This document shows positions 1 to 564 of a stretch of DNA of 564 bases, piece by piece. Position numbers and translations under genes: made by a program. Origin of the DNA: a phage; sequence record EF517033.1. One strand, 5' to 3'. Each line of letters opens with the position of its first letter. Position 1 is the stretch's first letter. The notes under the pieces are model-generated. The model searched no databases. It saw nothing but the letters and a program-made list of their open reading frames with translations, and was not told the origin of the DNA.

Positions 1-564
1 CTGGGAAAAAGAAAACCCGCCAATACAAGCAACTGGGTGTATAACTTGCTTAGAGAAAGATGATCGTTATCCACACACCTGTAACAAAGGAGCTAACGAT
101 ATGACCGAACGTGAACAAGAGATGATCATTAAGTTGATAGACAATAATGAAGGTCGCCCAGATGATTTGAATGGCTGCGGTATTCTCTGCTCCAATGTCC
201 CTTGCCACCTCTGCCCCGCAAATAACGATCAAAAGATAACCTTAGGTGAAATCCGAGCGATGGACCCACGTAAACCACATCTGAATAAACCTGAGGTAAC
301 TCCTACAGATGATCAACCTTCCGCTGAGACAATCGAAGGTGTCACTAAGCCTTCCCACTACATGCTGTTTGACGACATTGAGGCTATCGAAGTGATTGCT
401 CGTTCAATGACCGTTGAGCAGTTCAAGGGATACTGCTTCGGTAACATCTTAAAGTACAGACTACGTGCTGGTAAGAAGTCAGAGTTAGCGTACTTAGAGA
501 AAGACCTAGCGAAAGCAGATTTCTATAAAGAACTCTTTGAGAAACATAAGGATAAATGTTATGC
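1..564 (+). CDS. 1.7: Partial CDS, truncated at both ends, reading frame 2 (first complete codon 2-4, last complete codon 560-562). Likely product: phage T7-type gene 1.7 nucleotide kinase (dGMP/dTMP kinase) with a DUF3310/SaV-like C-terminal domain.
   Basis: Seen in sequence: 187 consecutive sense codons with no stop in + frame 2, while every other frame has stops. Codon usage and amino-acid composition look like a real protein, with a Cys-rich N-terminal part, a Pro/Thr/acidic linker and a C-terminal KPSHY...GNILKYRLRAGKK...DLAKADFY block. Recollection, unverified: the translation matches residues about 9-195 of the 196-aa T7 gp1.7, and the C-terminal block matches the DUF3310 family. The ORF track omitted it because neither a start nor a stop of this frame is inside the window. 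Confidence 0.85.
86..103 (+). promoter_or_regulatory. Internal ribosome-binding site (AAAGGAG, 86-92) plus in-frame ATG (101-103): a likely internal translation start giving a shorter N-terminally truncated isoform of the same protein.
   Basis: Seen in sequence: a near-perfect Shine-Dalgarno AAAGGAG lies 8 nt upstream of an ATG that is in the same frame as the long ORF. Recollection: T7 gp1.7 has been reported to be made in two sizes because of an internal ribosome-binding site. Confidence 0.6.
548..563 (+). promoter_or_regulatory. Putative ribosome-binding site (AAGGA, 548-552) plus ATG (561-563) in + frame 3: probable start of the next gene, overlapping the last codons of the gene 1.7-like CDS. 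Only ATG plus one nucleotide is inside the window.
   Basis: Seen in sequence: AAGGA lies 8 nt upstream of an ATG in a different frame from the main ORF, at the very 3' edge. Recollection: in T7 the gene 1.8 start overlaps the gene 1.7 end by about 8 nt, which is the geometry this ATG would give if gene 1.7 ends two codons past the window. Confidence 0.4.

Follow-up and report, generated by a model that had tools for sequence, protein, structure and literature searches.

A Probable Internal Translation Start at Met42 of Bacteriophage T7 Gene 1.7 and Its Distribution Among T7-Like Phages

Introduction

Can a Shine-Dalgarno (SD) sequence followed by an in-frame ATG in the middle of a phage coding sequence act as a working second start, so that one gene yields both a full-length and an N-terminally shortened protein? 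The question is raised by a 564-nt stretch of phage DNA (sequence record EF517033.1; hereafter the window, meaning the whole stretch analyzed), in which a first-pass annotation had pointed to an AAAGGAG element lying 8 nt ahead of an in-frame ATG and had judged so strong a site unlikely to be silent. In-frame internal starts that give rise to N-terminal proteoforms are well exemplified by the IF2 forms encoded by E. coli infB. The same principle underlies the bacterial in-frame internal starts mapped by genome-wide retapamulin Ribo-seq (bioRxiv 10.1101/520783), which involve a different gene family.

The window belongs to gene 1.7 of phage T7, whose product, gp1.7, has dTMP/dGMP kinase activity (PMC7693777; PMC11897194, both citing Tran et al., 2012). 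Among the papers on gp1.7 covered by a full-text search, whose reach ended short of the reports of Tran and colleagues, no mention of two gp1.7 forms was found. A 2010 study by Tran, Lee, Richardson and Tabor in Mol Microbiol reportedly described purified gp1.7 as a mixture of two forms, of about 22 and about 18 kDa, that did not differ in kinase activity, and a further study from 2012 in J Biol Chem is said to have shown that both forms co-purify in a large complex. The existence of two gp1.7 forms has reportedly been in the literature since 2010 and is already known rather than a new finding. The present analysis is concerned with the origin of the shorter form, and with what the distribution of the internal site among related phages suggests about the history of the gene.

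Results

Identity and Context of the Window

The window corresponds to positions 8190–8753 of the phage T7 genome (AY264774; 98.9% identity), which cover part of gene 1.7 (8167–8757) and the first four bases of gene 1.8. Pairwise alignment places it at nt 24–587 of gene 1.7, with its end falling 4 nt short of the end of the stop codon, and frame 2 is the sole long open frame, remaining open throughout. In T7, gene 1.7 is preceded by gene 1.6 (BC10 family) and followed by genes 1.8 and 2 (RNA polymerase inhibitor), and the neighbors of the gene 1.7 homologue in T7-like relatives match this order. The ATG of gene 1.8 (window positions 561–563) follows a TAAGGA element (547–552) with an 8-nt spacer and shares sequence with the final codons of gene 1.7, so that the 3′ end of the window carries a second, annotated ribosome-binding site.

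Six substitutions separate the window from T7 (positions 23, 44, 64, 313, 316, and 520), all of them G>A or C>T and none less than 20 nt away from the internal site. Two are missense changes (V16I, and A23T within CxxC), the other four being silent. None of the six was found in any T7 record or phage record in the phage collection, and their one-sided spectrum looks like the outcome of chemical mutagenesis or deliberate alteration, not of natural divergence.

The Internal Site and Its Expected Products

The arrangement claimed by the first-pass annotation is present in frame 2 (Table 1). Alignment with T7 identifies the ATG as codon 42, and the predicted loss of "41 or so" residues upon initiation at this codon proves to be exactly 41. 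The resulting product would begin MTEREQEMIIK... and comprise 155 aa, with a computed mass of 17.71 kDa, as against 196 aa and 22.18 kDa for full-length gp1.7.

Table 1. Features of the window bearing on the putative second start of gene 1.7.
Feature	Position	Strand	Basis
Gene 1.7 reading frame, codons 9–195 of 196	2..562	+	T7 match, annotation, alignment, translation
Cys/His motif of the N-terminal module (C21-x2-C24 ... H33-x-C35), long form only	38..82	+	Translation
CA repeat CACACAC shortly before the internal SD	72..78	+	Direct reading; longer in L104 and L105
Weakly structured stretch around the internal start (−17 to +12)	84..113	+	Predicted opening energy
Internal SD AAAGGAG (codons Lys37-Gly38 and first base of Ala39)	86..92	+	Direct reading
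8-nt spacer CTAACGAT	93..100	+	Direct reading
Internal start codon ATG (Met42), putative	101..103	+	Direct reading, translation, alignment
Predicted short-isoform coding sequence, 155 aa (residues 42–195 in the window)	101..562	+	Translation
Four-Cys motif of the middle module (C67, C71, C76, C79), both isoforms	176..214	+	Invariant alignment columns
DUF3310 domain, residues 122–184, both isoforms	341..529	+	Pfam PF11753, E = 4.5e-23

The part of the element matching the anti-SD is the AAGGAG hexamer, for which a duplex of −7.9 kcal/mol with the 3′ end of the 16S rRNA is computed. The same core at the same 8-nt spacing is found in the ribosome-binding site of gene 10A. The SD duplexes of annotated T7 starts have a median of −9.65 kcal/mol (n = 56), and 32% of them are as weak as or weaker than that of the Met42 site; to describe the site as being of consensus strength is hence to overrate it somewhat. 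At the codon level, GGA is a minority glycine codon in T7 (16%), and T7 codon usage assigns AAA GGA a probability of 0.055 given a Lys-Gly pair.

An AAGGAG-N5-10-ATG arrangement occurs once in the window against 0.02 expected, and was present in 4 of 200 shuffled versions. The whole T7 genome contains 19 such arrangements, all on the + strand, against 2.19 expected, and 16 of the 19 are annotated starts. The three unannotated matches lie at 8275 (the gene 1.7 site), 15461 (gene 5), and 19356 (gene 7), which is approximately the number to be expected by chance, set at about one unannotated match per T7 strand. The gene 5 match (15461–15478, + strand) reads AAGGAG-N9-ATG and is out of frame, while the gene 7 match (19356–19373, + strand) has the same form and meets a TAA directly after the ATG. 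Of the AAGGAG hexamers on the + strand of T7, 13 lie elsewhere than ahead of an annotated start, and that of gene 1.7 is alone among these in having an in-frame ATG 5–10 nt downstream. Because the unannotated matches genome-wide are no more numerous than chance predicts, the motif alone is not decisive, and it was rejected as proof of an internal start.

RNA Accessibility and Start-Site Scores

Opening energies were computed for 30 nt (−17 to +12) around every T7 start with a local partition function in a 150-nt window. At a predicted opening energy of 3.68 kcal/mol in T7, the Met42 site is easier to open than any other of the 303 internal in-frame ATGs (median 9.14) and than some 89% of annotated starts (median 6.46). 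The window's own sequence gives 3.93 kcal/mol. This small predicted rise from 3.68 accompanies the silent C>T at position 64, which extends a weak hairpin by pairing AUCGUUAUCC (63–72) with GGA..GCUAACGAU (89–100), and covers part of the internal SD and spacer. A search for a stable local RNA fold that might hide or regulate the Met42 site returned only a weak hairpin, no stabler than in shuffled sequences (z = +0.34).

When SD duplex and opening energies are combined, Met42 (−4.22) comes out ahead of every other candidate in this set of 303 and surpasses 70% of annotated T7 starts. The second rank is taken by the annotated internal start of gene 4B (−3.09), whose recovery serves as a positive control for this admittedly crude score, and the third site drops to −0.68; gene 4B is the only other internal ATG in T7 to score like a real start. 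For reference, the first start of gene 1.7 scores −4.59 and that of gene 10A −3.23. Other internal start-like sites were seen in frame at a TTG in gene 16 (codon 943; T7 33406–33423), following a perfect AAGGAGGTG, and at a GTG in gene 3.8 (codon 18; T7 11276), following AGGAGG; in addition, gene 16 has at codon 139 (T7 31009) an ATG whose SD reaches −12.6 kcal/mol but whose context is closed, with an opening energy of 13.4.

Conservation in Relatives With the N-Terminal Extension

Searching with the protein gave 877 homologues, and of the best 120 cluster representatives, which were those examined, 64 carry the N-terminal Cys/His module. All 64 have the equivalent of Met42, which is also invariant in an alignment of 59 sequences, and in all of them it is separated from the Cys/His module by a linker of exactly six residues that occurs in 25 different versions, with glycine at its third position in 61 of the 64. 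At the DNA level, 25 distinct genes with the extension were compared from Teseptimavirus and Kayfunavirus, and the internal SD is present in both genera. The ATG is found in 25/25, GGAG in 23/25, and the full AAAGGAG with an 8-nt spacer in 21/25. One of these genes (L103) encodes the linker peptide KKESTT instead of NKGAN, yet its DNA still reads AAGAAGGAG, and another (L109) carries a stronger SD, AAAGGAGG. In two further genes (L101 and L102), a Gly>Arg change (AAAAGAG) removes the SD (−2.1 and −2.4 kcal/mol), yet both the ATG and the gene are kept, which indicates that some phages can do without the internal site.

The first T7-type set, comprising 11 sequences, has the GGA codon in every one of them; half of the other conserved glycine columns vary. 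Within this set, the site belongs to a stretch of 4 invariant codons (44–50), the longest such stretch, of 5, being located elsewhere, and a permutation test for suppressed synonymous change at the site in these 11 sequences was not significant (P = 0.35). Taken together, the comparison suggests, but does not prove, selection on the site at the nucleotide level.

Relatives Without the Extension and Modular Rearrangements

In KP32-like Klebsiella phages (Przondovirus), the annotated gene begins MTEREIQV..., corresponding residue for residue with T7 Met42–Glu46, and its start directly follows a strong SD located where gene 1.6 ends. These homologues, like those of K1F-type phages, which are proteins of 148–155 aa beginning at the Met42 position, lie between gene 1.6 and the RNA polymerase inhibitor as in T7 and share the middle and DUF3310 modules, and the N-terminus of the KP32-like protein (MTERE...) is that of the predicted T7 short form. 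They differ from T7 in lacking the N module and in having the Met42 equivalent as their only start, with its SD at the end of gene 1.6, and would thus make one protein rather than two. The same picture emerges from 80 IMG/VR loci, 9 of which are T7-type with the internal site and 34–35 of which begin at the Met42 equivalent (MTERE...) after a strong SD. In 22 of the latter, a stop codon lies 0–1 codons upstream of the start, so that no longer form is possible there.

Further relatives have the N module fused straight to DUF3310 (L013, L014, and P0112), or consist of DUF3310 alone. Two tandem Cys/His N modules were seen in phage P694 (L018 278–787) and in protein P0069; in P694, the tandem modules are joined directly to DUF3310, without the four-Cys middle module. 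Since the N module is present, absent, or duplicated among relatives, gene 1.7 can be regarded as modular, with Met42 as a module boundary. Judging from these arrangements, the small Cys modules of gene 1.7 appear to behave as interchangeable units that the family gains and loses freely.

Structure prediction is consistent with such a boundary. DUF3310 is the single Pfam domain in the window product, and no solved structure related to the window protein was found. The AlphaFold model of the window protein, built on the 59-sequence alignment, is poor overall (mean pLDDT 58, pTM 0.36) and unfit for a fold search. Its pLDDT stays below 50 before Met42 (about 31 N-terminal residues of the window) and lies between 69 and 87 over the 60 residues that follow, so the confident part of the prediction starts at Met42 and takes in the four-Cys module.

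Natural Variants and Database Start Calls

Two relatives have a longer version of the CA repeat that precedes the internal SD. In L104 (a 39-kb contig; about 270–300), the repeat is longer by 2 nt, which places the N module out of frame, and its new frame is closed by a TGA that shares bases with the internal ATG (ATGA). In L105 (about 265–300), the repeat is longer by 4 nt and the N-module frame stops ahead of the SD. The downstream 155–157 codons are intact in both, and with the N module frameshifted only the internal ATG can express the kinase part. Each variant is known from a single assembly and could represent either real repeat slippage or an assembly error.

Start calls for gene 1.7 are inconsistent across database records. 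L106 combines a weakened first SD with a gene call made at the internal ATG. Phage ZH4 (OM355495.1; L111 401–871) and JGI protein P0084 are likewise annotated from the internal ATG, despite the presence in both of the N module and, upstream and in frame, of another ATG whose SD is strong (−13.0 kcal/mol).

Discussion

The evidence assembled here argues that the Met42 site is very probably a working second start, through which gene 1.7 would give rise to proteins of 196 and 155 aa. The first-pass expectation that so strong a site would not be silent finds support, at the level of sequence, in the top combined score, the invariant methionine, the retention of GGAG, and the many relatives that start at the equivalent position. 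It is also consistent with the two forms reportedly seen on purification of gp1.7, which concern the same gene of the same phage and agree with the masses computed from Met1 (22.18 kDa) and Met42 (17.71 kDa); the window differs from reference T7 at six bases, none of them in the site. We infer that ribosomes initiate at Met42 during T7 infection.

In the proposed mechanism, the gene 1.7 mRNA would carry two ribosome-binding sites serving one reading frame. The first, at the gene 1.6/1.7 junction and outside the window, would direct synthesis of the 196-aa protein, and the second, formed by AAAGGAG, 8 nt, and the AUG of Met42, would yield the 155-aa protein by ordinary SD-directed initiation. 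Because this second site sits in the least structured stretch of gene 1.7, 30S subunits could bind it directly. The short form would consist of the C-terminal 155 residues, both forms would possess the four-Cys module and the DUF3310 kinase domain, and they would differ only by the 41-residue N-terminal Cys/His module. The about equal scores of the two starts (−4.59 and −4.22) suggest that long and short products are made in comparable amounts, although ribosomes coming from the first start will cross the internal site and could reduce its use.

The closest parallel is provided by T7 itself. Gene 4A/4B also combines an internal SD with an in-frame ATG (codon 64; annotated in V01146), and the 4B protein is likewise N-terminally shortened, lacking a Cys-rich zinc motif. 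The two sites reach their scores in opposite ways, with a stronger SD (−11.6) in a more structured context (8.51) for 4B, and a weaker SD (−7.9) in a more open context (3.68) for gene 1.7. Furthermore, the 4A and 4B forms have known distinct activities, whereas we know of no functional difference between the gp1.7 forms.

This last point bears on the most serious alternative to the reading proposed here, which concerns the function of the site and not its mechanism. The Met42 site might be an evolutionary leftover, in which a Cys/His module became fused ahead of an MTERE... gene and the old start was carried along, perhaps still firing, with a short product that has no role and is not under selection. 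The many relatives that begin at the Met42 equivalent, the apparent freedom with which modules are gained and lost, and the two lineages (L101 and L102) that have lost the SD and kept the gene are all in line with such a history, as are the outcome of the synonymous-site test (P = 0.35, 11 sequences) and the kinase activity that Tran and colleagues are said to have found equal in both forms. A site free of selection does not, however, readily account for a methionine that is invariant in 64/64 representatives within an otherwise variable linker of fixed length, for an SD kept at the nucleotide level under a changed peptide (L103) and strengthened in L109, or for its retention in both Teseptimavirus and Kayfunavirus. 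Moreover, a decaying relic need not be the most open of all 303 internal in-frame ATGs of T7. On balance, we regard a vestigial site as unlikely, and yet as an alternative to be taken seriously.

A functional second start has much less to fear from the proposal that the SD and ATG are silent and that the smaller gp1.7 species arises by proteolytic removal of some 40 N-terminal residues. The 31 N-terminal residues of the window, with pLDDT below 50, could form a tail accessible to proteases, but the site outscores both 70% of annotated T7 starts and the gene 4B internal start, and its equivalent is the sole start in relatives. Given the quality of the site and this use as a sole start, proteolysis is an unnecessary assumption, and we consider it very improbable. 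Least credible of all is a role of the SD-like sequence as an elongation pause site or frameshift stimulator rather than in initiation: SD-like sequences within dnaX and prfB do stimulate frameshifting and the SD is closely preceded by a CA repeat prone to slippage, but the alternative frames run for a few codons at most, the invariant in-frame ATG at an exact spacing would be left unexplained, and neither a slippery heptamer (X XXY YYZ) nor a CUU UGA-type site was found at the required distance downstream of the SD.

As a discovery, a second start in gene 1.7 carries little weight in view of the two forms reportedly described in 2010, and its value is that of a useful worked case. A simple score based on SD binding and RNA opening was sufficient to single out, among 303 candidates, Met42 of gene 1.7 and the start of gene 4B, both clearly set apart from the remainder. 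The comparative details, which we have not seen described, are modest additions: the predicted short isoform corresponds to the entire KP32-like protein, confidence in the predicted fold sets in at the internal methionine, natural frameshifted variants occur, and database start calls disagree.

These comparisons suggest that a shorter gene originally started at the Met42 site, the N module having been either added by fusion or lost. A more far-reaching scenario can be drawn from this suggestion, although we hold it to be improbable as a whole. With Met42 as the original start, the N module would be an add-on that is fused, duplicated, swapped, or split off, and slips of 2 or 4 nt in the CA repeat would turn a two-isoform gene into one encoding a small upstream peptide and a short kinase made from the internal ATG only. 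If these arrangements were to differ in function, for instance in kinase oligomer assembly or in recognition by host defenses such as Avs5, the ratio of the isoforms would be a tunable trait of these phages and not a by-product.
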